Source: a virus
Virus genome (UHGV): UHGV-1911926
Direction: 5' to 3' (one strand)
DNA length: 16,028 bases
Shown: piece after piece, positions 976-14,655 of the stretch
How positions within the stretch are numbered: position 1 is the stretch's first letter
Layout: each line of letters begins with the position of its first letter
Position numbers and translations under genes: made by a program
Notes under the pieces: generated by a model
What the model was told of the DNA's origin: nothing
The model's input: the letters and a program-made list of their open reading frames with translations, nothing else
Database searches by the model: none

Positions 976-1106
976 CGAGATTAAAGTGCATTAGTTCAGA
1001 TGCAAATTGACATTTTGTGGCACAGGGTAGAGCTAGCGTGGTTGTCCGCTTTGTGCCAATAGCGGACATTGCTGGCTCATGGTATGTTAGTTTAAGGAGG
1101 CAGGTT

Positions 1107-2129
1107 ATGCCCTGTATTTCGCTGTGGTATAATAGTTGCGCAATTGATACAAGGGAGCGTTACATCGTGAAAATTGTTTTCGAGGTTAATGGAAAGAAAG
1201 TTCCACTAAAATCTTTAAAATACATAAGCAAAAAAGATCAACTCGAAGTAATGAAAAACTGGTTCTTTGAAAACTTTGAAGATCCGGCAAATGCTTGTCC
1301 GTATGAAAGTAGAGAAGGTGGCTATGCTTACATATATGGCGGGCCGTATGATGCGAGCGAAGAACTACAATCCATCTTCGGTCAATATGTTAAATCTGAG
1401 TATATTGAGGAATTAGTAGATGAATTACAAACACAATGTTTTGACTGGTCTGGAAACTCAAATAATATAGATGATTGGTACGATGATGATATCTACGACG
1501 CTGTAACGTCTTCCGGTAATCCGTATTTAAAATTCATTGATAATATCGATAAAATAAAAAAACTTGCAAAAGATAAAACTGAACAACAGCAAAAAAACCA
1601 CTTGCTTAGTTTGCTCTACACGAATGTTATTACAGCTTTGGAAACGCTTTATGTTGAGCTATTCATTAATTCTATAGAGAAAGATGATGTCTACATAGCC
1701 AATTGTATAGAAAAAGGTAAGACTGAATTTAAAGTAAGCAAAGATATTGCTGCGTTGCCTTTCAAGGGTGAACCCATCGAGAAAATTAGGGGAGAGCTAA
1801 TCAGGTCAATCAAGGAACACTTGATCAGTGCAAGCTGGCATAGCACTAAAAAGGTAATCGACCGCTATGAAGCTACATTCGATATAAAAGTACAAAAAGA
1901 CTGTCCGATAGAAGCTATTGAATTGGCAACCCTCAATCGAAATCACTTAGTGCATCGTGGTGGAAAGGATAAAGAAGGGAACCTCGTAGTGATTACAGAC
2001 CAGGATCTTGAAACGCTGATTGAAAATGCATCGAACCTGGCAATTATGCTCTACAACAGTTTAAATGTAGCAACGAATAAAACCACCATTTTGCAACCAG
2101 ATGACAAACCGTTCATTCATGAATTTTAA
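1107..2129 (+). CDS. Cassette gene A: hypothetical protein with HEPN-like R-x4-H motif (NRNHLVHRGG) in the C-terminal region; putative RNase-type effector
   Basis: Long ORF (track 1017..2129). Preferred start ATG 1107 with AGGAGG at 1095-1100 (6-nt spacing); alternative GTG 1167 with GGGAG at 1153-1157. Strongly AT-rich compared with flanks. The R-x4-H motif matches the HEPN signature described by Anantharaman et al.; the assignment is inference, not a database hit. Confidence 0.6.
   Translation: MPCISLWYNSCAIDTRERYIVKIVFEVNGKKVPLKSLKYISKKDQLEVMKNWFFENFEDPANACPYESREGGYAYIYGGPYDASEELQSIFGQYVKSEYIEELVDELQTQCFDWSGNSNNIDDWYDDDIYDAVTSSGNPYLKFIDNIDKIKKLAKDKTEQQQKNHLLSLLYTNVITALETLYVELFINSIEKDDVYIANCIEKGKTEFKVSKDIAALPFKGEPIEKIRGELIRSIKEHLISASWHSTKKVIDRYEATFDIKVQKDCPIEAIELATLNRNHLVHRGGKDKEGNLVVITDQDLETLIENASNLAIMLYNSLNVATNKTTILQPDDKPFIHEF
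1125..1133 (+). promoter_or_regulatory. Extended -10-like element TGgTATAAT
   Basis: Exact TGnTATAAT match at 1125-1133, just upstream of the alternative GTG start (1167) of the AT-rich cassette; no good -35. Speculative. Confidence 0.25.
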
Positions 2130-2144
2130 TAGCGCAGGTCATAC

Positions 2145-3146
2145 ATGGATATTCGCACACGAAAGACAAAATTTTTAGAGTCGTTAGATTCAACTGAAGT
2201 GATACGCAAAGCAGTAAGTCTCGCTATAGATTGCATTATTGATAATCATAATAGTAATGAAGATACCCCCTTAGTTATTACCAGCTATGATGATCTCTGT
2301 AGAATCCAGGTGCTAAATTATGTACAGGAGTTTTGCGAAGCTGCATTCCCTGATATGGATGAATATTACTTTAGTCCTAACATACTTCGCATCAACGGCA
2401 AGACTAGTGAAGAAGCTTGTATTAACTTAATTAAACTCTTAAGAAGTACAAAAGGCATGCTATTCTGGTCCGATGCCCCATCGTGGTTCGCTAGCCTCCC
2501 CGACGGATTATTCCATGTTGTTAACATTGATCAAAAAATCGTTACTCGCGGCCTTAATAAGAAAAACTCTAAGCCGACAATAATCAATAAAGATTACAGT
2601 GTAGATACACTACTATCAGAGCTATTTTTGAATGGCGCACACATGGAGCAACCCAACGTACACAACGTTTCTGAGGGAAACATGAAGTTCTATGATGAAT
2701 GCCATGCTGGATTAATCAGACCAATACCCGCTCCAATAGGCGCGTCATACGATGAAGAGATCACAATTAATTCTCCAGATTGGCAAAAGCTCGCGTGTGT
2801 AGCTTTACGCCGCTATCAGTCGAAGGAATGTCATGACGGAATGCAATGGGATACAACCGATCATGGTTGGACTGATGTAATCGCGTATCCATTCGTCGAA
2901 GAAATACAATCAATGGATAATAGTGGTTATCGACAATGTTTAGTTGGGCTGGTCACAATAAACAATTCAAATGCAAATTCTCCGTACCTATCTACCGTTT
3001 GGATACATCCATTTTATCGCAGGAGAGGGTTATTAAGTAAGTTATGGCCAAAATTACAAGAGTTATATGGAAGTAACTTCGAAATTGAGCGACCTAATGA
3101 AAATATGAAAGCATTTCTGAAAAGTGCGAAACACGCAGATTACTAA
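2145..3146 (+). CDS. Cassette gene B: hypothetical protein (333 aa), co-oriented 15 bp downstream of gene A; weak GNAT-like segment (WIHPFYRRRGLL) near C-terminus
   Basis: ORF 2145..3146, same AT-rich composition as gene A, operon-like spacing. No confident family assignment; the GNAT resemblance is weak. Confidence 0.6.
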   Translation: MDIRTRKTKFLESLDSTEVIRKAVSLAIDCIIDNHNSNEDTPLVITSYDDLCRIQVLNYVQEFCEAAFPDMDEYYFSPNILRINGKTSEEACINLIKLLRSTKGMLFWSDAPSWFASLPDGLFHVVNIDQKIVTRGLNKKNSKPTIINKDYSVDTLLSELFLNGAHMEQPNVHNVSEGNMKFYDECHAGLIRPIPAPIGASYDEEITINSPDWQKLACVALRRYQSKECHDGMQWDTTDHGWTDVIAYPFVEEIQSMDNSGYRQCLVGLVTINNSNANSPYLSTVWIHPFYRRRGLLSKLWPKLQELYGSNFEIERPNENMKAFLKSAKHADY

Positions 3147-3257
3147 TTTATGAATCAGTCTGTGGAGTTAGGGTTGGTGTCAACAAGTAGGGTAAGAGCC
3201 TCAACGTGATGCTATGCCGACCTGCTCCCTGAGAATTCACACAGAAGGCTGCTAGCA

Positions 3258-3548
3258 ATGTCTGCAGATCGCTCAAAGCGGACTAGAAGGTTAGCTTGCG
3301 TCGGACTTGGCGTATTTAAAGAAGTGCTGGTGGTGACTGGTTGTTGTGTTCCATTTCTACAGAACAAAATCACAGAAACTATACCCAATAGTTATATTGA
3401 ATCAATGATGAGACAGCCTCATATTTATCAGAACTGGTGTACGTCCAATACAGGAGGTTGTCGTGCTGGTTCTCAAATGTGCGCTAGCTATTGCGGCTGT
3501 AATGGCAATTTATTGTCTTGCTGTTGTTCTTATGGATCGCCTTTCTGA
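3258..3548 (+). CDS. Hypothetical small cysteine-rich protein (96 aa; C-terminal ~45 aa carry 11 Cys)
   Basis: ORF with GAAGG at 3244-3249 and ATG 3258. Could be spurious; no family recognised. Confidence 0.3.
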   Translation: MSADRSKRTRRLACVGLGVFKEVLVVTGCCVPFLQNKITETIPNSYIESMMRQPHIYQNWCTSNTGGCRAGSQMCASYCGCNGNLLSCCCSYGSPF

Positions 3549-3606
3549 TTGATTTTATATTGGCGAGGTGACGGGAGTTAAGTAGAATTGCTGCGGGTGC
3601 TTGAGG

Positions 3607-3642
3607 CTATCTGCCTCAGGCATGAACACCAAAGGCAGATAG
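3607..3642 (+). other. Perfect 10-bp inverted repeat (CTATCTGCCT / AGGCAGATAG) with 16-nt loop, upstream of hok
   Basis: Seen directly; no U-tract follows, so a regulatory or mRNA-folding element rather than a terminator. Confidence 0.4.
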
Positions 3643-3763
3643 AGAAAAGCCCCAGTTAATATTACGCGTCCTGCAAGACGCTTAACATTAATCTGAGGCT
3701 CAATCTATGAACGGCAAATCTAGGTTAGCCTCTTACGTGCCGAAAGGCAAGGAGAAGCAGGCT

Positions 3764-3919
3764 ATGAAGCAGCAAAAGGCGATGTTAATCGCCCTGATCG
3801 TCATCTGTTTAACCGTCATAGTGACGGCACTGGTAACGAGGAAAGACCTCTGCGAGGTACGAATCCGAACCGGCCAGACGGAGGTCGCTGTCTTCACAGT
3901 TTACGAACCTGAGGAGTAA
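3764..3919 (+). CDS. hokD: Hok/Gef-family type I toxin (51 aa; MKQQKAMLIALIVICLTVIVTALVTRKDLCEVRIRTGQTEVAVFTVYEPEE), HokD/RelF-like
   Basis: Protein is near-identical to my recollection of E. coli HokD/RelF (single transmembrane helix, conserved C-E-V/R-T-G-Q-T-E-V-A motif). The ORF track shows an in-frame upstream extension from 3707; ATG 3764 is preceded by AAGGAG at 3745-3750. Confidence 0.85.
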   Translation: MKQQKAMLIALIVICLTVIVTALVTRKDLCEVRIRTGQTEVAVFTVYEPEE

Positions 3920-3926
3920 GAGACCC

Positions 3927-3948
3927 GGCGAGGGAGAAATCCCTCGCC
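3927..3948 (+). other. 9-bp stem hairpin with GAAA loop (GGCGAGGGA-GAAA-TCCCTCGCC) immediately 3' of hok
   Basis: Seen directly; hok mRNAs are known to carry extensive 3' structure (fold-back elements). Confidence 0.4.
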
Positions 3949-3987
3949 ACCTCTGATGTGTCAGGCATCCTCAACGCACCCGCACGT

Positions 3988-4016
3988 AACCCGCTTCGGC
4001 GGGTTTTGTTTTTTCC
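3988..4016 (+). terminator. Intrinsic terminator (CCCGC-TTCG-GCGGG followed by TTTTGTTTTTTCC)
   Basis: GC stem with tetraloop and U-tract downstream of hok. Confidence 0.65.
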
Positions 4017-4086
4017 TGGCATTCTGGTTTACAATTCGCACGCCAGCCTGAACAACTGGCACCTGCTGCGCCAGCAGAGACAACCG

Positions 4087-4365
4087 ATGGCGCACGATAC
4101 CAAATTACACAATTCTGATGATTCTGCCGTCTTTGCCAGCAGGCACGGGCGGCGTTCCCGCACTTTCAAATCTGACTGGTTCCAGCATCCCCCATGCACT
4201 GAAGAACAGGCCGAGTGGCTAATTCAGTGCTACCGCAGACACGGATACGAGATTAAGAAAGCCCTCAGCCTCGATTATCGTCACTGGATAATCTCCGTCA
4301 GGCTTCCTTACTCCGAACGATCACCGCGTCCGTCCCGCACATTCCAGCAACGCATCTGGAGGTAA
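4087..4365 (+). CDS. Hypothetical phage protein (92 aa); positionally equivalent to rem in the Qin hokD-rem-ydfU-quuQ block
   Basis: Track ORF 3958..4365 begins inside the hok terminator; the first in-frame ATG after the terminator is 4087. The stop at 4363-4365 abuts the next gene's RBS. Start is uncertain. Confidence 0.4.
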   Translation: MAHDTKLHNSDDSAVFASRHGRRSRTFKSDWFQHPPCTEEQAEWLIQCYRRHGYEIKKALSLDYRHWIISVRLPYSERSPRPSRTFQQRIWR

Positions 4366-4366
4366 C

Positions 4367-5496
4367 GTGCGAGTATTACTTCGACCTGTTCTGGTACCGG
4401 AACTCGGGCTGGTGATCGTTAAGCCGGGCCGTGAATCCATGCCGGTATTCCACAATACCCGGGTACTGGTGGAGCCGGAACCGAAAAGCATGCGTAATCT
4501 GCCGTCCGGGGTTGTTCCTGCCGTTCGCCAGCCGCTAGTGGAAGACAAAACATTGCTGCCGTTTTTCAGTAACGCACGGGTGATTCGTGCTGCTGGTGGT
4601 GCTGGTGCATTGTCTGACTGGCTGTTGCGCCATATTAAATCCTGCCAGTGGCCACACGGCGATTATCATCACAGCGAAACCGTCATTCACCGTTATGGTA
4701 CCGGCGCAATGGTGTTGTGCTGGCACTGCGACAACCAGCTGCGTGACCAGACATCCGAATCACTCGAGCAACTTGCTCATCAAAACCTGTCAGCATGGAT
4801 GATTGACGTCATACTCCATGCAATGAATGGCTCGCAGGAACGGGAATTATCGCTGGCTGAATTATCCTGGTGTGCGGTCCGCAATCAGGTGGCGGACGCG
4901 CTACCGGAAGCGGTATTACGTCGTTCGCTGGGGTTGCGTGCGGAAAAAATCCGCTCAATGTACCGTGAAAGCGACATCGTACCGGGAGAGCAGACCGCCA
5001 CCAGCATACTGAAGCAGCGCACAAAAAATCTTGCGCCGCTGCCTCACGCCCACCAGCAAAACCCGCCACAGGAAGAGNNNNNNNNNNNNNNNNNNNNNNN
5101 NNNNNNNNNNNNNNNNNNNNNNNNNNNNNNNNNNNNNNNNNNNNNNNNNNNNNNNNNNNNNNNGTCAGCATTGCCGTTGATCCTGAGTCTCCGGAATCTT
5201 TCATGAAACGACCTAAACGTCGCCGCTGGGTTAACGAGAAATACACACGCTGGGTGAAGACACAGCCGTGTGCGTGTTGTGGTAAGCCAGCCGACGATCC
5301 CCATCACCTGATTGGTCATGGTCAGGGCGGAATGGGGACAAAATCTCACGATATTTTCACGCTACCGCTGTGTCGGGAGCATCACAACGAGCTTCATGCG
5401 GATCCTCTGGCGTTCGAAGAAAAGCATGGTTCTCAGGTTGATTTAATTTTTCGTTTTCTTGATCACGCCTTTGCAACTGGCGTGCTTGGGTAAAAG
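4367..5496 (+). CDS. DUF968-like (YdfU-like) prophage protein with C-terminal Cys/His cluster (CACCGK...HHLIGH...CREHHNELH); interrupted by an assembly gap
   Basis: GTG 4367 preceded by GGAGG at 4356-4360. Open frame to the N-run; a second open frame resumes right after the gap and runs to 5496. The frame differs across the gap (gap length presumably arbitrary). Family call from memory of Qin ydfU context. Confidence 0.65.
5078..5163. other. Assembly gap (86 N)
   Basis: Run of N in the sequence. Confidence 1.
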
Positions 5497-5505
5497 AGGT
5501 GACTG

Positions 5506-5880
5506 ATGCTCATAGATTTGGTTTTACCTTACCCGCCGACGGTGAACACTTACTGGCGACGCCGTGGCAGCACATATTTTATCTCGGAGGAGGGAAAGCG
5601 TTATCGCCGGGCTGTGGCGCTTATTGTTCGCCAGCAGCGGCTGAAATTAAGCCTGTCCGGAAGGCTGGCGATAAAGGTGATTGCAGAGCCACCGGATAAG
5701 CGTCGTCGCGACCTGGACAATATCCTGAAAGCACCGCTGGATGCGCTGACGCATGCGGGAGTGTTAATGGACGATGAGCAGTTTGATGAAATCAATATCG
5801 TTCGTGGTCAGCCAGTATCTGGTGGACGTATGGGGGTGAAGATTTACCCCATAATGCATGAAGAGCAGGTCAAAAAATGA
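5506..5880 (+). CDS. rusA: RusA-family Holliday junction resolvase
   Basis: 124-aa product with the PDKRRRDLDNILKAPLDALTHAG motif resembling E. coli RusA ([23 protein letters not shown]); AGAGG RBS at 5494-5498. Confidence 0.85.
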   Translation: MLIDLVLPYPPTVNTYWRRRGSTYFISEEGKRYRRAVALIVRQQRLKLSLSGRLAIKVIAEPPDKRRRDLDNILKAPLDALTHAGVLMDDEQFDEINIVRGQPVSGGRMGVKIYPIMHEEQVKK

Positions 5881-6698
5881 AACTGGAAGATTTACCGAAA
5901 TACTACTCCCCAAAATCCCCTGGCCTGACCGATGCATCGGCCTCAACGTCAAAAGATGCGCTGAGTATCACTGATGTGATGGCCGCGCAGGGCATGACAC
6001 AGAATCGGGCTGAGATGGGGTTTTCTGCGTTCCTGGGGAAAATGGGCATCAGTATGAATGACAGGGCGCGGGCAACAGAATTACTGGCAGATTATGCACT
6101 CAGTCGGTGCGATCGTGTGGCGGCGTTGAGAAAACTTCCGGCAGAAATAAAACCGGTAGTGATGCGCATTATGGCTTCGTATGCGTTTGAAGATTATGCC
6201 CGTAGCGCGGCGAGCAAAAAACAGTGCCCTTGCTGTCACGGAAAAAAATTTATTGAAAGCGAGGTTTTTACAAACAAGATCCAGTATCCGGATGGTAAGC
6301 CACCAGTGTGGGCAAAGTGCACAAAAGGCGTGTATCCGTCTTACTGGGAAGAATGGAAAAAAGTCAGGGAGGTGGTAAAAGTTGCCTGTCCGGAGTGTGG
6401 CGGAAAGGGTGAGGTTTCCACCGCCTGTAAGGATTGCCGTGGGCGTGGTGTCGCCATTCATCGTGAAGAGTCGGTAAAACGTGGTATGCCTGTTATCAGA
6501 GATTGCCAGCGTTGTGGTGGTCGTGGCTGTGAAAGGCTGCCATCAACGGAGGCATTTAATGCCATATGCAAAGTGACGAGTGCTATCACGCTTGATACGT
6601 GGAAAAAATCAGTGAAACGCTTTTACGATACGTTGGTGGTTCGGTTTGACATTGAAGAGGCATGGGCGGAGCGGCAGTTAAAGAGGGTAACGCGATAG
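5877..6698 (+). CDS. Putative late-gene antiterminator Q (QuuQ/phage-82-like), with four CxxC-x-G-type zinc-finger motifs
   Basis: Start overlaps the rusA stop (ATGA). Position between rusA and a promoter/terminator pair is the canonical Q location. Motifs CPCCHGKKF, CPECGGKGE, CKDCRGRGV, CQRCGGRGC. Family assignment is inference. Confidence 0.5.
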   Translation: MKLEDLPKYYSPKSPGLTDASASTSKDALSITDVMAAQGMTQNRAEMGFSAFLGKMGISMNDRARATELLADYALSRCDRVAALRKLPAEIKPVVMRIMASYAFEDYARSAASKKQCPCCHGKKFIESEVFTNKIQYPDGKPPVWAKCTKGVYPSYWEEWKKVREVVKVACPECGGKGEVSTACKDCRGRGVAIHREESVKRGMPVIRDCQRCGGRGCERLPSTEAFNAICKVTSAITLDTWKKSVKRFYDTLVVRFDIEEAWAERQLKRVTR

Positions 6699-6703
6699 TG
6701 TTG

Positions 6704-6731
6704 TTGATTTTTCCCGAATCTGTGGTAAATT
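6704..6731 (+). promoter_or_regulatory. Candidate late promoter (pR'-like): TTGATT, 16-nt spacer, TGgTAAATT
   Basis: Sigma70-like hexamers with extended -10 TG, immediately downstream of the Q-like gene. Confidence 0.3.
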
Positions 6732-6780
6732 TGCTCTAACGATGGGCGTTTTATGCCTGACGTTAGAAGATTTTTTACAC

Positions 6781-6803
6781 CCCGCCGCCTGGCGGGTTTT
6801 TTA
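6781..6803 (+). terminator. Intrinsic terminator (CCCGCC-GCCT-GGCGGG + TTTTTT), tR'-like
   Basis: Perfect 6-bp GC stem with U-tract about 50 nt downstream of the candidate late promoter; homologous copy at 11298..11319. Confidence 0.6.
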
Positions 6804-6922
6804 TGACTGAAATCGCGTCAGTACAGTAAACGCGCTGGTGGCGGTGAATACCTGTCTTTCAGCTTGCTGGCTTTTTCGACAAGAGTTATTGGTGTGTCAC
6901 GTTAACCGGAAAAGGAAAAGAC

Positions 6923-7120
6923 ATGCTAAAACAGCAGGATATGACAGAAACCGCCAGAGTGGTGTTTAATGAATTAAGCGTTACCGACCCGGCGACAGTC
7001 GGGGAGATAGCGCAGAATACTTACCTTTCACGCGAACGCTGCCAGTTAATACTGACTCAGCTGGTTATGGCGGGTCTGGCAGACTATCAGTTCGGTTGTT
7101 ACAGACGCCTTCCGCAGTGA
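6923..7120 (+). CDS. Small hypothetical protein (65 aa), possible winged-helix/HTH; paralog of 11442..11645
   Basis: AAGGAAAAG RBS upstream of ATG 6923. Shares MLKQQDMTETA...RCQLILTQLV.AGLA with the second copy. Stop codon lies in the loop of a terminator hairpin. Confidence 0.5.
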   Translation: MLKQQDMTETARVVFNELSVTDPATVGEIAQNTYLSRERCQLILTQLVMAGLADYQFGCYRRLPQ

Positions 7121-7131
7121 AGGCTTTTTTA
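7107..7131 (+). terminator. Hairpin GCCTTC-CGCAGT-GAAGGC + TTTTTT overlapping the stop of the small ORF
   Basis: Seen directly; weaker equivalent at 11636..11656 in the second copy. Confidence 0.45.
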
Positions 7132-7147
7132 TTTGTGGTAAATGGGC

Positions 7148-7178
7148 GGCTGGTGGGTGTTAGGGGCACCCACCAGCC
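7148..7178 (+). other. Perfect 12-bp GC-rich inverted repeat (GGCTGGTGGGTG / CACCCACCAGCC) with 7-nt loop in the methyltransferase leader
   Basis: Seen directly; a diverged copy (two mismatches in the 3' arm) at 11673..11703. Confidence 0.5.
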
Positions 7179-7270
7179 ATCTGCTCATGCGTCCGGATCA
7201 CAAGCAAACCTCAGGCCCACTGCTTTGCGCAAAAGCAGAATGAGCCTATCAGAGACAGGCTTAATGATCC

Positions 7271-8320
7271 ATGCTTAATACTGTAAAAATATCCAGTTGT
7301 GAGTTAATCAACGCCGACTGCCTGGAATTTATCCGGTCGTTACCCGAAAATTCTGTTGACCTGATAGTCACGGACCCGCCGTACTTTAAAGTGAAGCCTG
7401 AGGGCTGGGATAACCAGTGGAAGGGCGACGATGATTACCTGAAGTGGCTGGACCAGTGTCTGGCGCAGTTCTGGCGGGTGCTGAAACCTGCCGGAAGTCT
7501 TTACCTGTTCTGTGGTCATCGCCTGGCATCTGATATCGAAATCATGATGCGTGAACGCTTCAGTGTGCTGAACCATATTATCTGGGCGAAGCCGTCCGGA
7601 CGCTGGAACGGATGCAACAAGGAAAGCCTGCGGGCGTATTTCCCCGCCACAGAGCGCATTCTGTTCGCGGAACATTATCAGGGGCCGTATCGTCCGAAAG
7701 ATGCCGGGTATGCGGCGAAGGGCAGTGCACTGAAACAGCATGTGATGGCCCCGCTGATTTCTTACTTTCGTGATGCGCGCGCGGCCCTGGGGATAACGGC
7801 AAAACAGATTGCAGATGCCACAGGAAAGAAAAACATGGTGTCGCACTGGTTCAGTGCCAGTCAGTGGCAGCTACCGAATGAAAGCGATTATCTGAAATTA
7901 CAGGCGCTGTTTGCCCGGGTGGCAGAAGAGAAGCATCGGCGTGGTGAACTGGAAAAGCTCCACCACCAGCTGGTGGATACGTATACCTCACTGAACCGGC
8001 AGTATGCGGAGCTGCTGAGTGAATATAAACATCTGCGGCGGTATTTTGGCGTGACGGTGCAGGTGCCGTATACCGATGTGTGGACGCATAAACCGGTGCA
8101 GTTCTATCCCGGGAAACATCCGTGCGAAAAACCGGCAGAAATGCTGCAGCAGATAATCAGCGCAAGTAGCCGTCCTGGTGATCTGGTTGCGGATTTTTTC
8201 ATGGGGTCGGGTTCAACGGTAAAAGCGGCGATGGCACTGGGGCGTCGTGCGATTGGTGTTGAGCTGGAGACCGGACGTTTTGAGCAGACAGTCAGGGAAG
8301 TTCAGGATTTAATCGTTTGA
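7271..8320 (+). CDS. DNA methyltransferase, beta-class amino-MTase (DPPY motif IV near the N-terminus, FFMGSGST motif I near the C-terminus); likely N6-adenine (or N4-cytosine)
   Basis: 349-aa ORF with [10 protein letters not shown] and [10 protein letters not shown] motifs; motif order IV then I defines the beta class. Confidence 0.85.
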   Translation: MLNTVKISSCELINADCLEFIRSLPENSVDLIVTDPPYFKVKPEGWDNQWKGDDDYLKWLDQCLAQFWRVLKPAGSLYLFCGHRLASDIEIMMRERFSVLNHIIWAKPSGRWNGCNKESLRAYFPATERILFAEHYQGPYRPKDAGYAAKGSALKQHVMAPLISYFRDARAALGITAKQIADATGKKNMVSHWFSASQWQLPNESDYLKLQALFARVAEEKHRRGELEKLHHQLVDTYTSLNRQYAELLSEYKHLRRYFGVTVQVPYTDVWTHKPVQFYPGKHPCEKPAEMLQQIISASSRPGDLVADFFMGSGSTVKAAMALGRRAIGVELETGRFEQTVREVQDLIV

Positions 8321-8369
8321 AACGGATGAGATTGCAGAATTAATTACGCACCATTATTATTCTGCTCCC

Positions 8370-8445
8370 GGCCCTTTAGCTCAGTGGTGAGAGCGAGCGA
8401 CTCATAATCGCCAGGTCGCTGGTTCAAATCCAGCAAGGGCCACCA
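8370..8445 (+). tRNA. tRNA with CAU anticodon (Ile2-lysidine or Met), ileZ-like
   Basis: Manual fold: acceptor GGCCCTT/AAGGGCC, D-arm GCTC..GAGC, anticodon loop CTCATAA, T-arm GCTGG-TTCAAAT-CCAGC, discriminator A, encoded CCA. Confidence 0.8.
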
Positions 8446-8452
8446 TCACATA

Positions 8453-8529
8453 CCGCCATTAGCTCATCAGGAAAGAGCGCCAGCCTTCGAAGCTGGTTGC
8501 GCGGAGTTCGGGTCCCCGAAGGCGGTCCA
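8453..8529 (+). tRNA. tRNA-Arg (UCG anticodon), atypical
   Basis: Manual fold: anticodon stem CCAGC/GCTGG with loop CTTCGAA, D-arm GCTC..GAGC. Acceptor has one A-A mismatch, T-stem one A-C mismatch, T-loop TTCGGGT lacks the usual A58. Encoded CCA. Confidence 0.55.
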
Positions 8530-8542
8530 TTATCTGTATCCT

Positions 8543-8619
8543 GCGTTGTTAGCTCAGCCGGACAGAGCAATTGCCTTCTAAGCAATCGGTCACTGGTTCG
8601 AATCCAGTACAACGCGCCA
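8543..8619 (+). tRNA. tRNA-Arg (UCU anticodon), argO-like
   Basis: Manual fold: acceptor GCGTTGT/ACAACGC, anticodon stem ATTGC/GCAAT with loop CTTCTAA, T-arm ACTGG-TTCGAAT-CCAGT, discriminator G, encoded CCA. Confidence 0.85.
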
Positions 8620-8664
8620 CACTTATTTTCCCTGGCTCGCTTTTGCGGGCTTTTTTTTAAATGT

Positions 8665-8879
8665 CTCACAATTCAGGCGGTTGACTGTTGTCTGGTTTGC
8701 GGGGAGTTTGTTAAAAGAAACTGGCATGGTGAATCCCCCTGTGCGGAGGGGCAATCAGCGAGTAGGTATATGGGATAATCGCGGATTCAGGTGCTGGTAC
8801 TGAATTCACCGGGAGGCACCCGGCACCATGCAATGGCACATAGCGCCACTCTCCAGCCCCTCTCCGGAGGGGCTTTTCT
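8665..8879 (+). repeat. Non-coding module A (CTCACAATTCAG..TTGAC..GCATGGTGAATCCCCCTG.GCGGAGGGGC..-10-like..CACCGGGAGGCACCCGGCACCATG..terminator CCCCTC-TCCG-GAGGGG+CTTTTCT at 8857-8879)
   Basis: Homologous to module B at 9133..9366; conserved hairpins and terminator, no conserved ORF. Confidence 0.5.
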
Positions 8880-9068
8880 GTGCCGGATACATCACAGTTT
8901 CTGGAACCTTAGGTACTACAGTATCAGTCAGGGTGCTATATTTTCAGATGTGATGAAAGCCTGTCAGCAGGCAGGGCGTATCGGAAATGACCCAGTAGAG
9001 AAAACGTTGACTCAGATACCGGTGCTGAGTTACCGGGAAACCGGCATCACATGACCGCTATCCTTCCA

Positions 9069-9096
9069 GGCCCATCCGCTCCGGTGGGCCTTTTTA
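9069..9096 (+). terminator. Intrinsic terminator (GGCCCA-loop-TGGGCC + TTTTTA)
   Basis: Seen directly between the two non-coding modules. Confidence 0.5.
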
Positions 9097-9132
9097 CTGC
9101 AGAAAACAGGTTCCCCGTTAAATGCTATGTTG

Positions 9133-9366
9133 CTCACAATTCAGTAAGTTGACAGTTGCCTGTCAGACTGGGCATTTGTTAAAAAAATTTCGCATGGTGA
9201 ATCCCCCTGAGCGGAGGGGCGACTGGTGACGGTATAATCTCTGATTATCAAAACGAGAATGACGCGGGTTTAGTGGCACCGGGCTGAACTCACCGGGAGG
9301 CACCCGGCACCATGTGCATGATGATACAGATACGCGGCTTTAGCCCCTCTCCGGAGGGGTTTTCTT
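9133..9366 (+). repeat. Non-coding module B, paralog of module A; contains TTGACA (9149-9154), consensus TATAAT (9233-9238) and terminator CCCCTC-TCCG-GAGGGG+TTTTCTT (9344-9366)
   Basis: Alignable by eye to 8665..8879. Confidence 0.5.
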
Positions 9367-9372
9367 GTGGGC

Positions 9373-9401
9373 AAAAAAAGCCCGCGCTGGGAGACGCGGG
9401 C
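9373..9401 (-). terminator. Minus-strand intrinsic terminator (A-run on the plus strand followed by GCCCGCG-loop-CGCGGGC)
   Basis: Read on the minus strand this is a GC hairpin followed by a T-tract; sits back-to-back with the plus-strand terminator at 9344-9366. Confidence 0.45.
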
Positions 9402-9594
9402 GGCAAGGAATAAACAATAAAACGTGAAGTAATATTTCAGCTGGCGAATAATACCCCATAGTAATCACTCTGCGCAACTGCGCGGTCTTTTTCGAATTGC
9501 GGGCTGTCGTCTCTCTTCTGCCATTGTCCTGTAACTTCCGGACTTCAGCCCGCTCCTTATTTTACTCACAATATTATCCCGGCCGGGAGGATTC

Positions 9595-9822
9595 ATGGCA
9601 TTTAAACACTATGACGTGGTCAGGGCGGTATCGCCGTCAGACCTTGCGAAACGACTGACACAAAAACTGAAGGAGGGCTGGCAGCCGTTTGGTAGTCCGG
9701 TGGCCATAACCCCTTATACCCTGATGCAGGCGATTGCAGCAGAAGGTGATGTGGTGGTCAGTGGTGCAACTGAGCCGGATTGGTACTACGTCATCGTACT
9801 GGCCCGGCATTCCAGGCCATAA
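9595..9822 (+). CDS. Small hypothetical phage protein (75 aa)
   Basis: GGGAGG at 9582-9587 with ATG 9595; no family recognised. Confidence 0.5.
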   Translation: MAFKHYDVVRAVSPSDLAKRLTQKLKEGWQPFGSPVAITPYTLMQAIAAEGDVVVSGATEPDWYYVIVLARHSRP

Positions 9823-10090
9823 AAGACAGTCTGGCAGTGGGACTAAATGCACTGACGCTGATGGATATTACCAAAAATGTAACGTATGGCGTTGAGATAG
9901 AAAGTCTGGCGCTGGAGATAAATGCACCGGCATCATCATAAAAAGTGAGCCAGTCAAATGGAAGGTATCGTTAAACTCACCGGTAGTGTCAGTGGGTCGT
10001 CTGAGACGCTTGCATGAGTTATCAGAGCCATCAGTAGTTAACTGGTGGCTTTTTTATTGTTTTCAGCTTCCGGATAACGGGAGACGGGGT

Positions 10091-10290
10091 ATGGACCAGA
10101 TGGAAAAAATCACAACAGGTGTGTCATACACCACGTCAGCGGTGGGAACGGGCTACTGGTTCCTGCAGTTGCTGGACAGGGTTTCCCCGTCTCAGTGGGC
10201 GGCAATAGGCGTGCTGGGGAGTCTGCTGTTTGGGCTGCTGACATATCTGACTAACCTGTATTTCAAAATCAGAGAGGACCGTCGTAAGGC
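10091..10290 (+). CDS. Class II (S21-like) pinholin, 3'-truncated by the assembly gap
   Basis: [66 protein letters not shown] is paralogous to the holin at 12916..13131; ATG 10091 preceded by GGGAGACGGGG. The reading frame runs into the N-run. Confidence 0.6.
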
Positions 10291-10300
10291 NNNNNNNNNN
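10291..10300. other. Assembly gap (10 N), likely a scaffold join of unknown true length
   Basis: Run of N; the flanking genes are both truncated and not in a biologically expected order. Confidence 1.
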
Positions 10301-10640
10301 ACGTTGGGGGGCATGGGTGGCAAATAATCACGAGGATGTCACCTGGTCGTCTATTGCTGCAGGATTTAAAGGACTAATCCCTTCAAAAGTAAAATCCCGC
10401 CCGCAATGTTGTGACGATGATGCGATGATCATTTGTGGGTGCATGGCTCGCCTGAAAAAGAACAACAGCGATTTGCACGATTTATTAGTGGATTATTATG
10501 TAGGTGGTATGACGTTTATGGCGCTTGCCCGTAAACATGGGCGTTCTGATTGCTGGGTTGGGCGTTTATTGCAAAAGGCTGAAGGTGTAGTTGATGGCAT
10601 GTTAATGATGTTAGAAATTGAGCTAGAGATGGATCGTTAG
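10301..10640 (+). CDS. Antiterminator Q, QuuD-like, 5'-truncated by the gap
   Basis: Frame is open from the first base after the N-run ([53 protein letters not shown]...); matches my recollection of DLP12 QuuD. The track start at 10317 (GTG) is internal. Confidence 0.65.
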
Positions 10641-10682
10641 AAGACCTCTTATTGAGGGGGTAATTGAATCAGTTTAATGTGT

Positions 10683-10712
10683 GGGGAGTCGATTTATTCT
10701 CCCCATTTTATT
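10683..10712 (+). terminator. Hairpin GGGGAG-loop-CTCCCC followed by ATTTTATTT
   Basis: Seen directly between the Q fragment and the convergent lipoprotein gene. Confidence 0.4.
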
Positions 10713-10724
10713 TAATTAATTTAC

Positions 10725-11171
10725 TTAAGGTTTTAATTCATCAAGACGTTGTTGGATAGTGTTTTTGCTTGCGTTGTCTGTTATAGCCATTTGTTGTACT
10801 TGCCCCATTGCCATTTGAGTTTCCATCCACATATCGGCCCACACTTTTGTATCGTTATTAACTTGAGCGATAGTAAATCTGACTTTTGATACCGGGGTTG
10901 TTGAATAGGCATTGCCGATTAACATTTGTCCAAAAACAGCAGACCCGCCTTCCAGTTCTTTACCACATATAACACTGCTGTTATCAGCGTTGTAAATTAT
11001 CAACCCTCTACTATTGCAGTAATTCACAAGGGCATCTTTGACTTTATCTTTTGTCGTATTTTGATAAACCCCCTCAGGTTTTCCTGATTGAGTTTTTTTT
11101 ATCAATGGTACGGAAGAAGTACAACCTGAAATGATAGTTGCGCTAAGTAATAGTACAGTCATTTTATTCAT
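10725..11171 (-). CDS. Putative lipoprotein (148 aa; signal peptide with lipobox IISGC), AT-rich moron
   Basis: Minus-strand ORF with N-terminal MNKMTVLLLSATIISGC; lower GC than surrounding phage genes. Confidence 0.65.
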   Translation of the reverse strand: MNKMTVLLLSATIISGCTSSVPLIKKTQSGKPEGVYQNTTKDKVKDALVNYCNSRGLIIYNADNSSVICGKELEGGSAVFGQMLIGNAYSTTPVSKVRFTIAQVNNDTKVWADMWMETQMAMGQVQQMAITDNASKNTIQQRLDELKP

Positions 11172-11297
11172 GTTTCTTATCCATTGTTAAGGGCATACCT
11201 ACACAATTATTTTTATTGGAGATGAATAATCAACCGTTTACAATCGTAAAAAATCAAATATGCTGTTAAGAGTGGTTACTTCGCCACACAACTTAAA

Positions 11298-11319
11298 CCC
11301 GCCGCTGAGCGGTTTTTTT
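11298..11319 (+). terminator. Intrinsic terminator (GCCGC-TGA-GCGGT + TTTTTTT), homolog of 6781..6803
   Basis: Seen directly; the downstream ~120 bp is alignable to 6800..6922. Confidence 0.5.
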
Positions 11320-11441
11320 GTACCTGTAAACTTGGTGCAGTACAGTAAACACGCTGGTGGTCGTGAATACTGACCTTTTATCTTGCTGGCTTTTTAGACA
11401 AGAGTTATTGGTATGTCATGTTAACCAGAAGGGAAAAAGAC

Positions 11442-11645
11442 ATGCTAAAACAGCAAGATATGACAGAAACCGCCGCCGCAGTCCTTCATTTCTTACCTGC
11501 TGACAAGTGGGTAACGCCACGCATGATGACGAGAACTACCGGAGTAAGCGAAGCCCGGTGCCAGTTAATACTGACTCAGTTAGTTCTGGCGGGTCTGGCG
11601 AAGGATAACGGCGGATACGGGAATAAATTCAGACGCTGCCAGTAA
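11442..11645 (+). CDS. Small hypothetical protein, paralog of 6923..7120
   Basis: Start chosen at the second ATG (MLKQQDMTETA) by analogy with copy 1; RBS AGAAGGGAAAAAG. Stop lies in a hairpin loop as in copy 1. Confidence 0.5.
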   Translation: MLKQQDMTETAAAVLHFLPADKWVTPRMMTRTTGVSEARCQLILTQLVLAGLAKDNGGYGNKFRRCQ

Positions 11646-11795
11646 TGGCGGTTTCCTGCTGTGAAAATGGGCGGCTGGTGGGTGTTGGTAGCACCTGCCA
11701 GCCATTCGCTCATGCTTACTGGTCACAAGCGAACCACGGCCCACTGCTTTAGCGCAAAAGCAGAGTGAGCCTACCAGAGTTACGCTTACTGATCC

Positions 11796-12848
11796 ATGAA
11801 AAATACTGTAAAAATAAACAGTGTTGATTTAATCAACGCTGATTGCCTGCATTTTATTCAGTCCCTGCCTGATGATTCCATTGACCTGATTGTTACCGAT
11901 CCGCCGTACTTCAAGGTGAAACCCAACGGCTGGGACAATCAGTGGAAAGGGGACGAAGATTACCTTAAGTGGCTGGACCACTGTCTGGCCCAGTTCTGGC
12001 GGGTGTTAAAACCTGCCGGAAGCCTTTACCTGTTCTGTGGGCATCGCCTGGCATCTGATATTGAGATCATGATGCGTGAACGTTTCAACGTGCTTAACCA
12101 TATCATCTGGGCGAAGCCGTCCGGACGTTGGAATGGGTGTAATAAAGAAAGTCTGCGCGCATATTTTCCTGCCACAGAGCGCGTTCTGTTTGCTGAACAT
12201 TACCAGGGGCCATATCGCGGCAAAAGTGACGGCTATGCGGCAAAAGAAAGGGAACTCAAACAGCACATAATGGCACCGCTGATATCGTATTTCAGGGATG
12301 CTCGTGCCGAACTGGGTATAACGGCAAAACAAATTGCCGAAGCCACAGGTAAGAAAAATATGGTTTCCCACTGGTTTGGTGCCAGTCAGTGGCAGTTGCC
12401 GAATGAGGCTGACTATCGGAAGTTACAGGCACTGTTTTCCCGTATAGCGGCAGAGAAGTTTCAGGAACAACAACTGGAACAACCACACCACCAGCTGGTG
12501 GCATCTTATGATTCACTGAATCGCAAATATTCTGAATTGCTGGATGAGTTTAAATCTCTCCGGCGCTATTTCTCCGTATCAGTCTCCGTGCCTTATACCG
12601 ATGTCTGGATGCATAAACCCGTTCAGTTCTACCCGGGTAAACATCCGTGTGAGAAACCGGCGGATATGCTCAGGCAAATAATCAATGCCAGTAGTCGACC
12701 TGGTGATCTGGTTGCTGATTTTTTTATGGGATCCGGTTCCACAATAAAAGCAGCAATGGCGCTGGGGCGTCGGGCCTTAGGTGTTGAGCTTGAGTCAGAG
12801 CGGTTTAACCAGACAGTGAAAGAGATAAACGAGCTGGTGGGGAAATAA
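11796..12848 (+). CDS. DNA methyltransferase, beta-class amino-MTase, paralog of 7271..8320
   Basis: DPPYF and FFMGSGST motifs; high identity to copy 1 with a divergent central segment (roughly residues 215-260). Confidence 0.85.
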
Positions 12849-12915
12849 TCTGGTGGCCACGTCAGGTGGCCTTTTTATTTCCATTACACAGCACCCGCAT
12901 CTGCGAGGTGGGGTT

Positions 12916-13131
12916 ATGAAATCCATGGATAAGTTAACAACGGGTGTCGCCTATGGCACCTCCGCAGGCAGTGCTGGCTACTGGTTTTTACAGTGGCTTG
13001 ATCAGGTCAGTCCGTCACAGTGGGCTGCGATTGGTGTACTGGGGAGTCTGGTTCTGGGCTTCCTGACTTATCTGACAAATCTGTACTTCAAAATCAGAGA
13101 AGACAAGCGTAAGGCTGCACGGGGAGAGTAA
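12916..13131 (+). CDS. S: Class II holin (phage 21 S21-type pinholin) with dual-start motif MKSMDK
   Basis: [71 protein letters not shown] matches my recollection of S21; RBS GAGGTGGGG. The track start 12853 is an upstream extension. Confidence 0.85.
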
Positions 13132-13135
13132 TTCA

Positions 13136-13480
13136 ATGACTCAAAACTATGAACTGATTGTGAAAGGGATCCGCAATTTTGAGAATAAAGTTACGGTAAC
13201 TTTAGCGTTACGGGACAAAAAACGCTTTGACGGTGAAATTTTTGACCTGGACATCTCGCTGGACCGTGTTGAAGGTGCTGCGCTGGAGTTTTATGAGGCA
13301 GCGGCCAGAAGGAGCATCAGACAGGTCTTCCTGGATGTCGCTGCCGGGTTATGTGAAGGGGATGAGCAGTCGCCGGAAAAGCGCCCCGTAATTTTAGAGG
13401 CGCAGAATGTATGGATAACCTACAAAGGAAAGCTACCGGGAAGGATTACTGGTTCCCTGAAGACTCCGCCGAAATGGTAG
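13136..13480 (+). CDS. Hypothetical protein (114 aa) between holin and endolysin
   Basis: GGGGAGAG RBS with ATG 13136; no family recognised. Confidence 0.5.
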   Translation: MTQNYELIVKGIRNFENKVTVTLALRDKKRFDGEIFDLDISLDRVEGAALEFYEAAARRSIRQVFLDVAAGLCEGDEQSPEKRPVILEAQNVWITYKGKLPGRITGSLKTPPKW

Positions 13481-13718: not shown

Positions 13719-13823
13719 AAATAATCCTCTTGATTGTCTTTACCTTTTCCCCGCCTGATTCAACAGGCCGGGACAGATAAACATATCCAGGGTTCAGAAA
13801 CCGATAAATCCTGATAAATATCC

Positions 13824-14654: not shown

Positions 14655-14655
14655 A

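Follow-up and report, generated by a model that had tools for sequence, protein, structure and literature searches.

The window analysed here, a stretch of 16,028 nt from the virus genome UHGV-1911926, contains two homologous copies of a four-part arrangement, at 6781-8320 and at 11298-12848, each made up of a terminator, a small ORF, a structured leader and a gene for a beta-class DNA methyltransferase. This arrangement, and the homology between the copies, had been pointed out in the original prediction and are real, all four parts having been found in both copies. Nucleotide homology between the copies begins at the terminator, and there is none 5' of it. The features of the two regions are as follows (window coordinates; the promoters and terminators are predictions).

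5877..6698, + strand: antiterminator Q of copy 1, lambda type, 273 aa (PF03589, E = 2e-49)
6704..6743, + strand: putative pR'-like late promoter region of copy 1 (similarity to lambda pR')
6781..6803, + strand: tR'-like intrinsic terminator of copy 1, the first element common to both copies (CCCGCCGCCTGGCGGG followed by TTTTTTA)
6863..6895, + strand: conserved box of copy 1, 5' of the small ORF (CTTGCTG-N10-CAAGAGTTATTGGTGTG)
6923..7120, + strand: small winged-helix protein of copy 1, 65 aa (PHROG 331, function unannotated; NCBI name 'TrmB family transcriptional regulator')
7107..7134, + strand: second intrinsic terminator of copy 1, over the stop codon of the small ORF (GCCTTCCGCAGTGAAGGC followed by TTTTTTATTT)
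7136..7276, + strand: 141-nt structured leader of copy 1 (covariance model R1, 130 bits, E = 5e-29)
7271..8320, + strand: methyltransferase of copy 1, 349 aa, predicted to be a non-specific N6-adenine DNA methyltransferase of the M.EcoGII type (PF01555, E = 4e-43)
10291..10300, no strand: scaffold gap of 10 N, dividing two prophage segments
10301..10640, + strand: antiterminator Q of copy 2, QuuD/933W type, 5' end lost at the gap (PF06530, model positions 16-118 of 118)
11237..11264, + strand: putative pR'-like promoter of copy 2 (TTTACA, 16 nt, TATGCT), then GTTAAGAGTGGT (promoter scan)
11298..11320, + strand: tR'-like terminator of copy 2 (GCCGCTGAGCGGT followed by TTTTTTT)
11382..11414, + strand: conserved box of copy 2, by sequence conservation (CTTGCTG ... 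CAAGAGTTATTGGTATG)
11442..11645, + strand: small winged-helix protein of copy 2, 67 aa (PHROG 331, E = 5e-26)
11661..11801, + strand: 141-nt structured leader of copy 2 (R1, 152 bits, E = 2e-34)
11796..12848, + strand: methyltransferase of copy 2, M.EcoGII family, 350 aa (PF01555, E = 2e-42)
12855..12881, + strand: terminator 3' of the second methyltransferase gene, before the holin gene (GGCCACGTCAGGTGGCC followed by TTTTTATTT)

Both methyltransferases match PF01555, with DPPY at residues 35-38 in the N-terminal part and FFMGSGST (FxGxG) at residues 309-316 in the C-terminal part, which confirms their assignment to the beta class. The enzyme of copy 1 is identical to M.EcoGII at 331 of 348 residues (about 95%) and that of copy 2 at 281 of 348 (about 81%), the M.EcoGII reference having been machine-read, with a few errors, from the supplement of PMC11551740. 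The copy 2 enzyme, an identical form of which is very widespread, also matches the reconstructed ancestor Anc291 at 310 of 346 residues (about 90%). This close, full-length identity places both enzymes within the M.EcoGII clade. M.EcoGI and M.EcoGII originate from E. coli O104:H4 C227-11 (Murray et al., 2018, PMC5778455; Ochiai et al., 2024, PMC11551740), and both, together with reconstructed ancestors down to 70% identity, are reported to be non-site-specific (PMC5778455, PMC11551740). M.EcoGII is also reported to be silent in the lysogen and toxic if expressed constitutively (PMC5778455). The two enzymes of the window are predicted to be non-specific N6-adenine methylases, as is known for M.EcoGII.

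It had been proposed that the two methyltransferases diverge in a central segment and may have different specificities. A gapless comparison by five structural segments gave 89.6, 72, 78, 73 and 80% identity; the linker and recognition segments (72-78%) are thus less alike than the N-terminal catalytic part (89.6%), but the central divergence is mild, as the C-terminal catalytic part is also just 80% identical. Different specificities are improbable, because the proteins are 82% identical overall and show neither indels nor an exchanged recognition domain. Moreover, the differences are spread along the protein, and a lack of site specificity is reported for the clade, ancestors of about 70% identity among them (PMC5778455), so that a recognition of different sequences owing to the central differences is hard to credit; the idea of two specificities should be kept out of the annotation. 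Evidence also speaks against a duplication within one late region. The gap at 10291-10300 truncates the 3' end of a holin ORF before it and the 5' end of the Q ORF after it, and the reading frame of the copy 2 Q continues into the N-run, the full 121-aa gene being present in PhiR40_1 and in other contigs. Positions 1-10290 of the window are 99.96-100% identical to a UTI89 prophage, and 10301-13475, which hold copy 2, are 98.3% identical to phage PhiR40_1. Further on, 12976-16028 show 37 mismatches to UTI89, all within 12987-13220, and 13221-16028 are again 100% identical. Among 5,426 complete E. coli genomes, not one matches 80% or more of either 5800-13200 or 10301-16028 at a single place, and not one has both copies together. 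The exact copy 2 methyltransferase was found in 8 long contigs, in the order DUF968, Q, (inserted gene), small ORF, methyltransferase, holin. A second N-run, of 86 N at 5078-5163, replaces just 6 nt of UTI89, and an N-run of such a wrong length implies that the record is a scaffolded draft. Most likely, therefore, the apparent duplication represents two prophages joined over the scaffold gap, copy 1 probably belonging to a UTI89-like prophage with a lambda-type Q and copy 2 to a PhiR40_1-like prophage with a QuuD-type Q, with the scaffold join leaving 4.5 kb between them. A true tandem, with two Q-methyltransferase modules one after the other in a single recombinant prophage, would accommodate the return to UTI89 after about 13221, because of which the PhiR40_1-like piece resembles an insertion into a UTI89-type prophage, and also a right junction inside a stretch common to both holin-YdfR regions. 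However, its left junction, hidden by the 10 N, would require that holin codon ~66 be joined to Q codon ~13 without homology, and the absence of the arrangement from the complete genomes, the usual position of the copy 2 Q and methyltransferase genes behind DUF968 and the scaffolded nature of the record all make a tandem very unlikely. Like the two specificities, the duplication should be kept out of the annotation.

The two Q genes upstream are of different types, as originally suggested: that of copy 1, annotated as an antitermination protein in UTI89, belongs to PF03589, the Pfam family matched by lambda Q itself, and that of copy 2 to PF06530. Just downstream of the copy 1 Q gene lie a -35 element TTGATT (6704-6709), a -10 element TAAATT (6726-6731) and a sigma-70 pause-type element AACGAT (6738-6743), and a direct comparison sets GGTAAATTTGCTCTAACGATGGG in copy 1 against GGTAAATTTGACTCAACGATGGG in lambda pR', the functions of whose elements are established. 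By similarity only, 6704-6743 can be taken for a pR'-like late promoter. The candidate promoter of copy 2, at 11237-11264, is assigned only by its position and by the recurrence of its motif ahead of the module at further loci whose Q is of the PF06530 type (phiP27 and loci L012, L032 and L072-L077). A terminator, in the form of a G+C-rich hairpin followed by a T-run, had been noted at the head of both copies and is present in both (at 6781-6803 and, for the hairpin and T-run of copy 2, at 11301-11320); most of the related loci listed also have a hairpin and T-run in the tR'-like position, although their stems differ in sequence, and the element is annotated as a terminator in phage SfV. Copy 1 accordingly has both the Q family and the succession of pR' and terminator of a lambda-type Q unit, the Q of copy 2 being PF06530. 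A second hairpin spans the stop codon of the small ORF. In copy 1 it forms a canonical terminator (hairpin 7107-7124 plus T6), whereas in copy 2 it is weaker and failed the terminator scan, and the statement that each small ORF ends in a terminator hairpin thus holds in full only for the former. This hairpin recurs with compensated stems (GCCTTC/GAAGGC, CTGCCA/TGGCGG, CCTCCA/TGGGGG, TTGCCC/GGGCAA) and is missing from Proteus-type loci. At the place equivalent to 12855-12881, SfV also has an annotated terminator. An RfaH ops-like GGCGGT in copy 1 was considered and rejected, since neither copy 2 nor the other loci keep it. Across loci, at least four different promoter/Q types are found upstream of the module, and one identical methyltransferase occurs behind either Q type. 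The gene order of the copies is also that of SfV, phiP27, Morganella phages and Providencia phages.

Between the first terminator and the small ORF lies a conserved box, the blocks of which, CTTGCTG and CAGAGTTA, are near-invariant from Escherichia to Xenorhabdus and Plesiomonas. RNA.alifold gave no consensus RNA fold upstream of the small ORF, and the box was therefore treated as a DNA or sequence signal; it is possibly a promoter (TTGCTG, 17 nt, TAYNTG). By eye, no palindrome is evident in it, and comparison with the consensus sequences, also by eye, led us to reject a sigma-54, -32, -24 or -28 site. The small proteins of the two copies are 53% identical, and those of the Shigella phage SfV and of phiP27 are 92-98% identical to that of copy 1; in all, homologues form 333 clusters. 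In copy 2 a Shine-Dalgarno sequence precedes the ATG at 11442, and the annotated start in PhiR40_1 corresponds to this codon. Translation probably does not begin at 11418, the ATG given in the mechanical ORF list. An AlphaFold model of the copy 1 protein (pLDDT 92) has three helices and a beta-hairpin wing (H-H-H + wing), and its best structural matches in Foldseek are MarR/IclR-type winged helices. A MarR/IclR/TrmB-type winged helix is thus predicted, at high confidence. Relative to a Salmonella copy, the copy 1 ORF shows 20 synonymous and 5 non-synonymous codon changes. The expectation that the small ORF encodes a helix-turn-helix-like DNA-binding protein was right as to a DNA-binding type of fold, but the fold is not the Xre-type, all-helical one of controller proteins. 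Conservation of the ORF in related prophages, and its linkage to the methyltransferase, were also borne out, as it lies directly upstream of an M.EcoGII-type gene in about 66 of 72 Enterobacterales loci. In Pfam, the small protein has no HTH_3 match, only sub-threshold winged-helix families.

The spacer of 150 nt between the small ORF and the methyltransferase gene is conserved and folds better than shuffled sequences (z = -4.0 for copy 1 and -2.8 for copy 2), in line with the structured leader proposed at the outset. Model R1 has two matches in the window. In copy 1 helix P1 pairs 7142-7147 with 7183-7188 and P2 pairs 7148-7159 with 7167-7178; the alternative helix P3 would pair about 7180-7189 with 7199-7208; P4 occupies 7214-7246; and P5, adjoining the AUG, pairs 7195-7200 with 7265-7270. 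The leader was found in 52 of 67 independent loci, some of which lack the small ORF, and always ends at the methyltransferase ATG; Xenorhabdus and Photorhabdus have a shorter leader, weakly matched by the model. In the covariation analysis 87.9% of the cells were paired, against 34-45% with partners slid. In an independent set the figures were 81% and 28-38%, with two-sided changes in 28 of 41 pairs, and in 11 of 12 in P2. The covariation alignment A7 was fitted to the leader model and is biased towards its structure. P5 was 87.7% paired, against 26-42%, with compensatory changes, and was weak in the independent set (58.8%). No two-sided changes were seen in P1, because its 5' strand is invariant. 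The column-wise test of P3 on A7 was dropped, because of register shifts, in favour of folding each sequence; P3 has two-sided changes in 5 of its 10 pairs and is, in most sequences, the local fold of minimum energy. Scanning IMG/VR with a methyltransferase alignment brought up only loci of 94% identity or more and no new diversity, whereas a scan seeded with the Kpn74 enzyme did add diversity. A hidden leader ORF (MGGWW...) was rejected, its frame not being conserved and meeting a stop after 18 codons in Proteus. At gathering thresholds Rfam 15 gave no match to the leader, and at E up to 10 on 6690-7300 it gave nothing credible for the leader or for the pR'-tR' transcript; the best sub-threshold match to the leader (21 bits against a threshold of 36) was on the opposite strand. 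The leader has the compensated, conserved structure and the fixed position relative to one gene family that define a cis-regulatory RNA. It is the one new item of the locus, a conserved folded RNA element outside the Rfam families and, judged from its sequences, a candidate for a new one. Our tentative reading, which we hold with somewhat less than even confidence, is that this undescribed cis-regulatory family is dedicated to M.EcoGII-type genes and is bistable (P1 or P3, plus P5 in many loci), and that it gates translation of a toxic, non-specific DNA/RNA adenine methyltransferase, either alone, or through a ligand, the enzyme acting on its own mRNA, or the winged-helix protein in a Com/Mom-like manner.

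Several accounts of what the small protein and the leader do can be set against each other. The small protein is probably a regulator of the methyltransferase unit, by prediction. Were it a controller-like transcription factor that binds the conserved box and sets the level or timing of its own transcription and that of the methyltransferase, its winged-helix fold, its place directly upstream of the enzyme gene and the near-invariance and promoter-like spacing of the box, which is present with the ORF and missing without it (Kpn74 has neither), would be explained. The box, however, has no identified conserved palindrome and its -10-like hexamer is poor, with G as the last base; in several lineages a terminator lies between the small ORF and the methyltransferase gene, and methyltransferase and leader also exist without the small ORF. 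The likeness to controller proteins put forward originally does not hold, since the fold is not of the Xre/HTH_3 family and there is no nuclease to control: no restriction endonuclease gene was found in the window or in the related loci inspected, where the neighbours are Q, tRNA and lysis genes. A transcription factor of this kind is possible but doubtful. Less probable still is an action on RNA, in which the small protein, once accumulated, would bind the leader and open the helix over the methyltransferase start, allowing translation. The layout is like that of com-mom in Mu, where a small ORF precedes the gene of a toxic DNA-modification enzyme and the start region is folded; P5 pairs bases adjoining the AUG in loci that have the ORF, with compensatory changes; and the methyltransferase has no clear Shine-Dalgarno sequence. 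Predicted pairing of the start region is 0.65-0.85 in loci with the winged-helix gene against 0.13-0.37 in Kpn74-like loci, which lack the ORF and have an open start region. Yet it is also high in some other loci without the small ORF, so that occlusion of the start site is not general, and the correlation of ORF presence with occlusion is suggestive, not clean. Moreover, winged helices mostly bind DNA, and a binding site for the protein was not identified.

The presence of the leader independently of the small ORF fits with a riboswitch (for a ligand such as SAM or SAH) or a self-contained switch, in which refolding of the nascent transcript from P3 to P1 would decide translation. Its fixed length (141 +/- 3 nt), the invariant blocks AAUGGGC, GGCCCA and AGCCUA, unpaired or paired, and the mutual exclusion of P1 and P3, both compatible with the substitutions seen, agree with this. 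But the leader matches no known riboswitch class in Rfam, and P1 is without two-sided changes; we consider such a switch unlikely. As for the conserved hairpin being a DNA element, a Chi site in a palindrome, rather than an RNA structure, its 5' arm GGCTGGTGGGTG does include Chi and stays unchanged across most loci of Enterobacteriaceae, whereas the 3' arm varies. In Proteus, in Kpn74-like loci and in others, however, the arms are wholly different, fully compensated and without Chi, and the G.U pairs place the structure on the + strand and suit an RNA of that strand only, which leaves very little room for a DNA element. The window as a whole contains 17 Chi sites.

The reading that we favour, with good though not full confidence, is that each copy is the ordinary start of a lambda-like late operon, from two prophages, in which a Q read-through unit with a leader keeps a toxic methyltransferase silent in lysogens and lets it be expressed late; the promoters, terminator function and Q dependence are predicted from sequence. 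The unit would run from the Q gene through a late promoter that is particular to each type of Q, a short transcript to the tR'-like terminator, the conserved box, the 65-67-aa winged-helix protein, the hairpin or terminator on its stop codon and the 141-nt leader to the methyltransferase, followed in copy 2 by a terminator and the holin gene. In a lysogen, transcription from pR' would halt at tR' and any that leaks through would halt at the second terminator, and the leader would additionally limit translation of the methyltransferase; we propose that these limits together keep the toxic enzyme silent. Upon induction, Q-modified RNA polymerase would pass both terminators, and the methyltransferase would be made late and methylate adenines, whatever their context, in replicated phage DNA that is yet to be packaged, protecting it from many restriction systems. 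The leader, which on this model gates methyltransferase translation, would adopt two exclusive folds, P1 or P3, with P5 pairing bases just 5' of the AUG in loci with the winged-helix gene. M.EcoGII is in wide use as a reagent and serves phages in counter-defence, but the silencing of its gene in lysogens and its lytic timing are so far undescribed: the searched text of PMC5778455 and PMC11551740 makes no mention of the upstream small ORF, the terminators or the leader, and we found nothing specific in the literature on regulation of M.EcoGII or of the small ORF. The anatomy of the module offers a testable control scheme, with a Q-dependent promoter, two terminators, a winged-helix partner and a folded leader with alternative pairings.

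With late control in lambda (Q, pR', 6S RNA and tR'), copy 1 shares the Q family, nearly the same -10 and pause elements and a terminator that follows at a short distance; its predicted terminated transcript, however, is about 65 nt, against 194 nt in lambda, and two extra genes and a second terminator precede the holin gene. The closest parallels in gene order are orf47-orf48 of SfV and L23-L24 of the Stx2e phage phiP27, in a series of Q, terminator, small ORF, methyltransferase, terminator or tRNAs, and holin or stx, although in those records the genes are annotated only as hypothetical protein or 'TrmB family', and function and leader are undescribed. M.EcoGII itself has the length of the copy 1 enzyme (349 aa), the beta-class motif order and a prophage location; its non-specific activity is published, whereas that of the two alleles described here is predicted. 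In com-mom of Mu, the small ORF lies immediately upstream, the mRNA structure includes the start region and the late, toxic product protects phage DNA from restriction. The toxicity of mom and its multilayer control are described in PMC3378877. The module resembles com-mom in its upstream small ORF, structured start region and late, toxic DNA-modification enzyme, but Com belongs to the zinc-finger RNA-binding proteins, Mom does not methylate, and the two systems are unrelated in sequence and fold; an RNA-binding role for the small protein would be by analogy. Controller (C) proteins are all-helical, Xre-type helix-turn-helix proteins some 80 aa long; they work through C-boxes, and their main target is a nuclease gene. 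The small protein differs from them in being a winged helix, with no HTH_3 match and no nuclease partner, and by eye no palindromic C-box is evident in the conserved box. Like them, it is a small protein of DNA-binding type encoded just upstream, on the same strand, of a DNA-modification gene, and control over the timing of a dangerous enzyme is a plausible common logic.

The window covers the replication-to-lysis part of E. coli lambdoid prophages, as shown by its ORFs, Rfam matches, tRNA scan results and similarity to annotated genomes; it carries hok/sok, DUF968, RusA, Q, the small ORF, a DNA methyltransferase, three tRNAs, two STnc100 RNAs, holin, lysozyme and Rz. The four-part arrangement that the original prediction placed at 6781-8320 (copy 1) and 11298-12848 (copy 2) is found in both stretches, with all parts located in each copy, and the antiterminator (Q) genes upstream are indeed of different types, PF03589 for copy 1 and PF06530 for copy 2. 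Homology between the copies starts at the terminator; the sequences from Q to the terminator are unrelated. Both copies have a conserved 150-nt spacer with a fold better than that of shuffled sequence, and a PF01555 enzyme (349/350 aa) whose DPPY motif is close to the N-terminus and whose FxGxG motif is close to the C-terminus. The features are:

6781-6803 and 11301-11320, hairpin with T-run
6923-7120 and 11442-11645, small ORF
7136-7276 and 11661-11801, leader RNA, the only two matches of its covariance model in the window
3595-3769, hok/sok-type toxin-antitoxin locus (Rfam sok, 113 bits), annotated hokD in UTI89, an E. coli genome whose prophage matches the window flanks
8370-8445, tRNA gene, tRNA-Met (anticodon CAT) by ARAGORN, tRNA-Ile in RefSeq for the same UTI89 gene
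8695-8885 and 9163-9372, two copies of the STnc100 sRNA family (Rfam, 136 and 161 bits), corresponding to the direct repeat D5/D6, 3' of three phage tRNA genes and 5' of a DUF1737 remnant and the holin gene
10725-11171, minus strand, gene for a 148-aa lipoprotein (PHROG 3152, function unknown), between the QuuD-type Q and its late promoter

Read as tRNA-Ile, the gene at 8370-8445 is the ileZ-like gene of Stx phages, which would require lysidine modification. In other genomes the insert spot after Q holds a GIY-YIG nuclease gene (phiP27) or ORFs of 141 or 176 aa.

The duplication of the late-region module, as originally proposed, is probably not real and is most likely an assembly artefact. Ten Ns at 10291-10300 lie between the copies; the holin ORF before this gap is without its last codons, and the Q ORF after it is without its first ~13 codons, its frame entering the Ns. 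Positions 1-10290 are 99.96-100% identical to the UTI89 prophage and 10301-13475 are 98.3% identical to phage PhiR40_1; within 12976-16028, all 37 differences from UTI89 are confined to 12987-13220 and identity is complete again over 13221-16028, so that a PhiR40_1-like piece is flanked by two UTI89-identical pieces. The right border of this piece lies inside a stretch common to two holin-YdfR regions. A run of 86 Ns inside the DUF968 gene (5078-5163) stands for only 6 nt of otherwise identical UTI89 sequence; thus, the record is a scaffold with estimated gap sizes. A true tandem arrangement, with both modules in one place as the record has them, is improbable: neither that pairing nor the whole of 10301-16028 occurs in any of 5,426 complete E. 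coli genomes. Eight long contigs encode a protein identical to the copy-2 methyltransferase, behind either Q family, and show the usual gene order: DUF968, Q, an inserted gene in some cases, small ORF, methyltransferase and holin. We conclude that the late regions of two repeat-sharing prophages were joined by the scaffolder.

Upstream of copy 1, the sequence GGTAAATTTGCTCTAACGATGGG resembles the late promoter pR' of lambda (GGTAAATTTGACTCAACGATGGG), and the Q proteins of lambda and of copy 1 share a Pfam family; on these grounds a pR' is predicted at ~6704-6743, with the hairpin at 6781-6803 as the putative equivalent of the tR' terminator. A different promoter-like motif is common to copy 2 and other loci whose Q is of the PF06530 family, and at least two further types exist. 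In most loci printed, a G+C-rich hairpin and a T-run come next, although the stems differ. A nearly invariant box, CTTGCTG-N10/11-CAGAGTTAYNTGTRTG, follows the hairpin ~45 nt 5' of the small ORF; it has promoter-like spacing and a poor -10. No consensus RNA fold was found for the box region, and the box is not present in the Klebsiella phage Kpn74, which is without the small ORF.

The small ORF is a real gene. Its homologues, named 'TrmB family transcriptional regulator' by NCBI, form 333 clusters in Escherichia, Shigella, Salmonella, Klebsiella, Citrobacter and others; the gene product is assigned to PHROG 331 (function unknown). Against a Salmonella copy, 20 of the 25 altered codons carry synonymous changes. 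Its conservation in related prophages, which the original prediction required, is borne out: when one genome was scanned per species, 72 loci with the gene turned up, ranging from Escherichia to Proteus, Providencia, Morganella, Xenorhabdus, Photorhabdus, Mixta and Plesiomonas, and in ~66 of these an M.EcoGII-like gene begins 85-150 nt past the stop codon, the exceptions being mostly contig ends. Pfam gives winged-helix matches, all sub-threshold; the AlphaFold model (pLDDT 92) has three helices and a beta-hairpin wing, and Foldseek relates it to MarR/IclR-type winged helices. The fold thus favours the small DNA-binding protein that had been envisaged, but membership of the controller-protein family is ruled out by the wrong fold, the missing HTH_3 match and the missing nuclease. 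Linkage to the small ORF is not obligatory for the enzyme, because the enzyme occurs without it in Kpn74 and in many IMG/VR loci; in a P2-like Aeromonas phage the enzyme sits between holin and lysin. In Kpn74 (L003, 2840-3003) and loci L162-L192, a tR'-like terminator leads directly into the 141-nt leader and the methyltransferase; small ORF and box are both absent, and so behave as a single optional cassette.

The interval between small ORF and methyltransferase is conserved across genera with compensatory changes, which upholds the predicted structured leader. Its helices are P1 (AUGGGC with GCUCAU), P2 (a 12-bp hairpin), P3 (an alternative hairpin of the P1 3' strand and the next CACAAGCGAA), P4 (GGCCCAC...GUGAGCC) and P5 (GGAUCA with UGAUCC, immediately 5' of the AUG). 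In the first alignment 87.9% of cells are paired, against 34-45% for slid partners (P5, 87.7% against 26-42%), and P3 has changes on both sides in 5 of 10 pairs; one P3 position shows three different Watson-Crick pairs among close relatives. Of 67 independent IMG/VR loci, gathered with the Kpn74 enzyme as seed, 52 have a full-length match to the covariance model (141 positions), and the match stops at the ATG of the methyltransferase. In this set, with the alignment fitted to the model, 81% of cells are paired against 28-38% in slid controls and both sides change in 28 of 41 pairs (11/12 in P2); P5 is weak here (58.8% paired). In both sets P3, with differing sequences, is the fold of lowest local energy for most members, and the many G.U pairs are compatible with the plus strand only. 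An Rfam search of the leader matched no family. In Xenorhabdus and Photorhabdus (L031-L079, about 3200-3310) the leader is shorter (85-110 nt) and matches the model weakly; a hairpin after GGUGAAAUG and then a T-run form a canonical terminator between small ORF and methyltransferase. Loci that carry the small ORF have a start region with high predicted pairing, and in Kpn74-like loci this pairing is low, but it is also high in some other ORF-less loci, so that start-codon occlusion is a lineage feature rather than a rule. One Enterobacteriaceae genome (L023, 3172-3315) has a full-length leader match (93 bits) and a partial small ORF, and tblastn found no methyltransferase downstream of the leader; this may be a decayed module.

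Against the M.EcoGII sequence given in the PMC11551740 supplement, which is machine-read and contains a few errors, copy 1 matches at 331/348 residues and copy 2 at 281/348; copy 2 matches the reconstructed ancestor Anc291 at 310/346. M.EcoGI and M.EcoGII (333/349 identical) are reported to methylate adenine in any context, and to be prophage-borne, unexpressed in the lysogen and harmful under constitutive expression (Murray et al., PMC5778455). Ancestors down to ~70% identity are reported to be still largely non-site-specific, and the enzyme is modelled as a Rossmann domain (residues 1-134, 260-349) with a four-helix recognition domain (160-237) (Ochiai et al., PMC11551740). The two copies are 82% identical and gap-free (89.6, 72, 78, 73 and 80% by segment), a pattern of ordinary divergence with no swapped recognition domain; different specificities through a diverged central segment, as once suggested, are unlikely. 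In 933W-type Stx2 phages (933W, NC_000924 20966-21064; similar Stx2a phages, H81-H95) only the last 33 methyltransferase codons are kept, upstream of the tRNA/stx region, as a remnant of a deleted module.

The window also holds 17 Chi sites (GCTGGTGG) between 3326 and 14698, 12 on the plus and 5 on the minus strand, against ~0.5 expected and a maximum of 4 over 200 shuffles (for example 6834, 7149, 7170, 7963/7969, 11353, 11674, 12488/12494 and 12833). Each module has Chi in the small-ORF 5' region and in the 5' arm of P2, and each methyltransferase ORF contains a palindromic double Chi (codons HHQLV). Chi clusters near the lambdoid right end, oriented to be active for RecBCD entry at cos, have been described (PMC12315714).

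Which parts make up the module, how they are ordered and conserved, which enzyme it encodes and that the RNA covaries are matters of observation; how the unit works can be proposed. Q-dependent read-through of the two terminators would give late expression, the leader may restrain or time translation of the methyltransferase, and the enzyme would methylate phage DNA ahead of packaging to counter restriction, a role likewise suggested by Murray et al. (PMC5778455). More speculatively, the small protein might regulate the unit, by acting at the box on the DNA or, like Mu Com, on the RNA of the leader. In the sources searched, we found no description of the conserved leader or of its association with a winged-helix protein, and the pair merits a small experimental follow-up. 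Neither the genes nor their order is new, and both are ordinary in lambdoid phages: the layout matches that of Shigella phage SfV, annotated as orf47-orf48 with both terminators, and of phiP27 (L23-L24), and Morganella and Providencia phages are annotated likewise.
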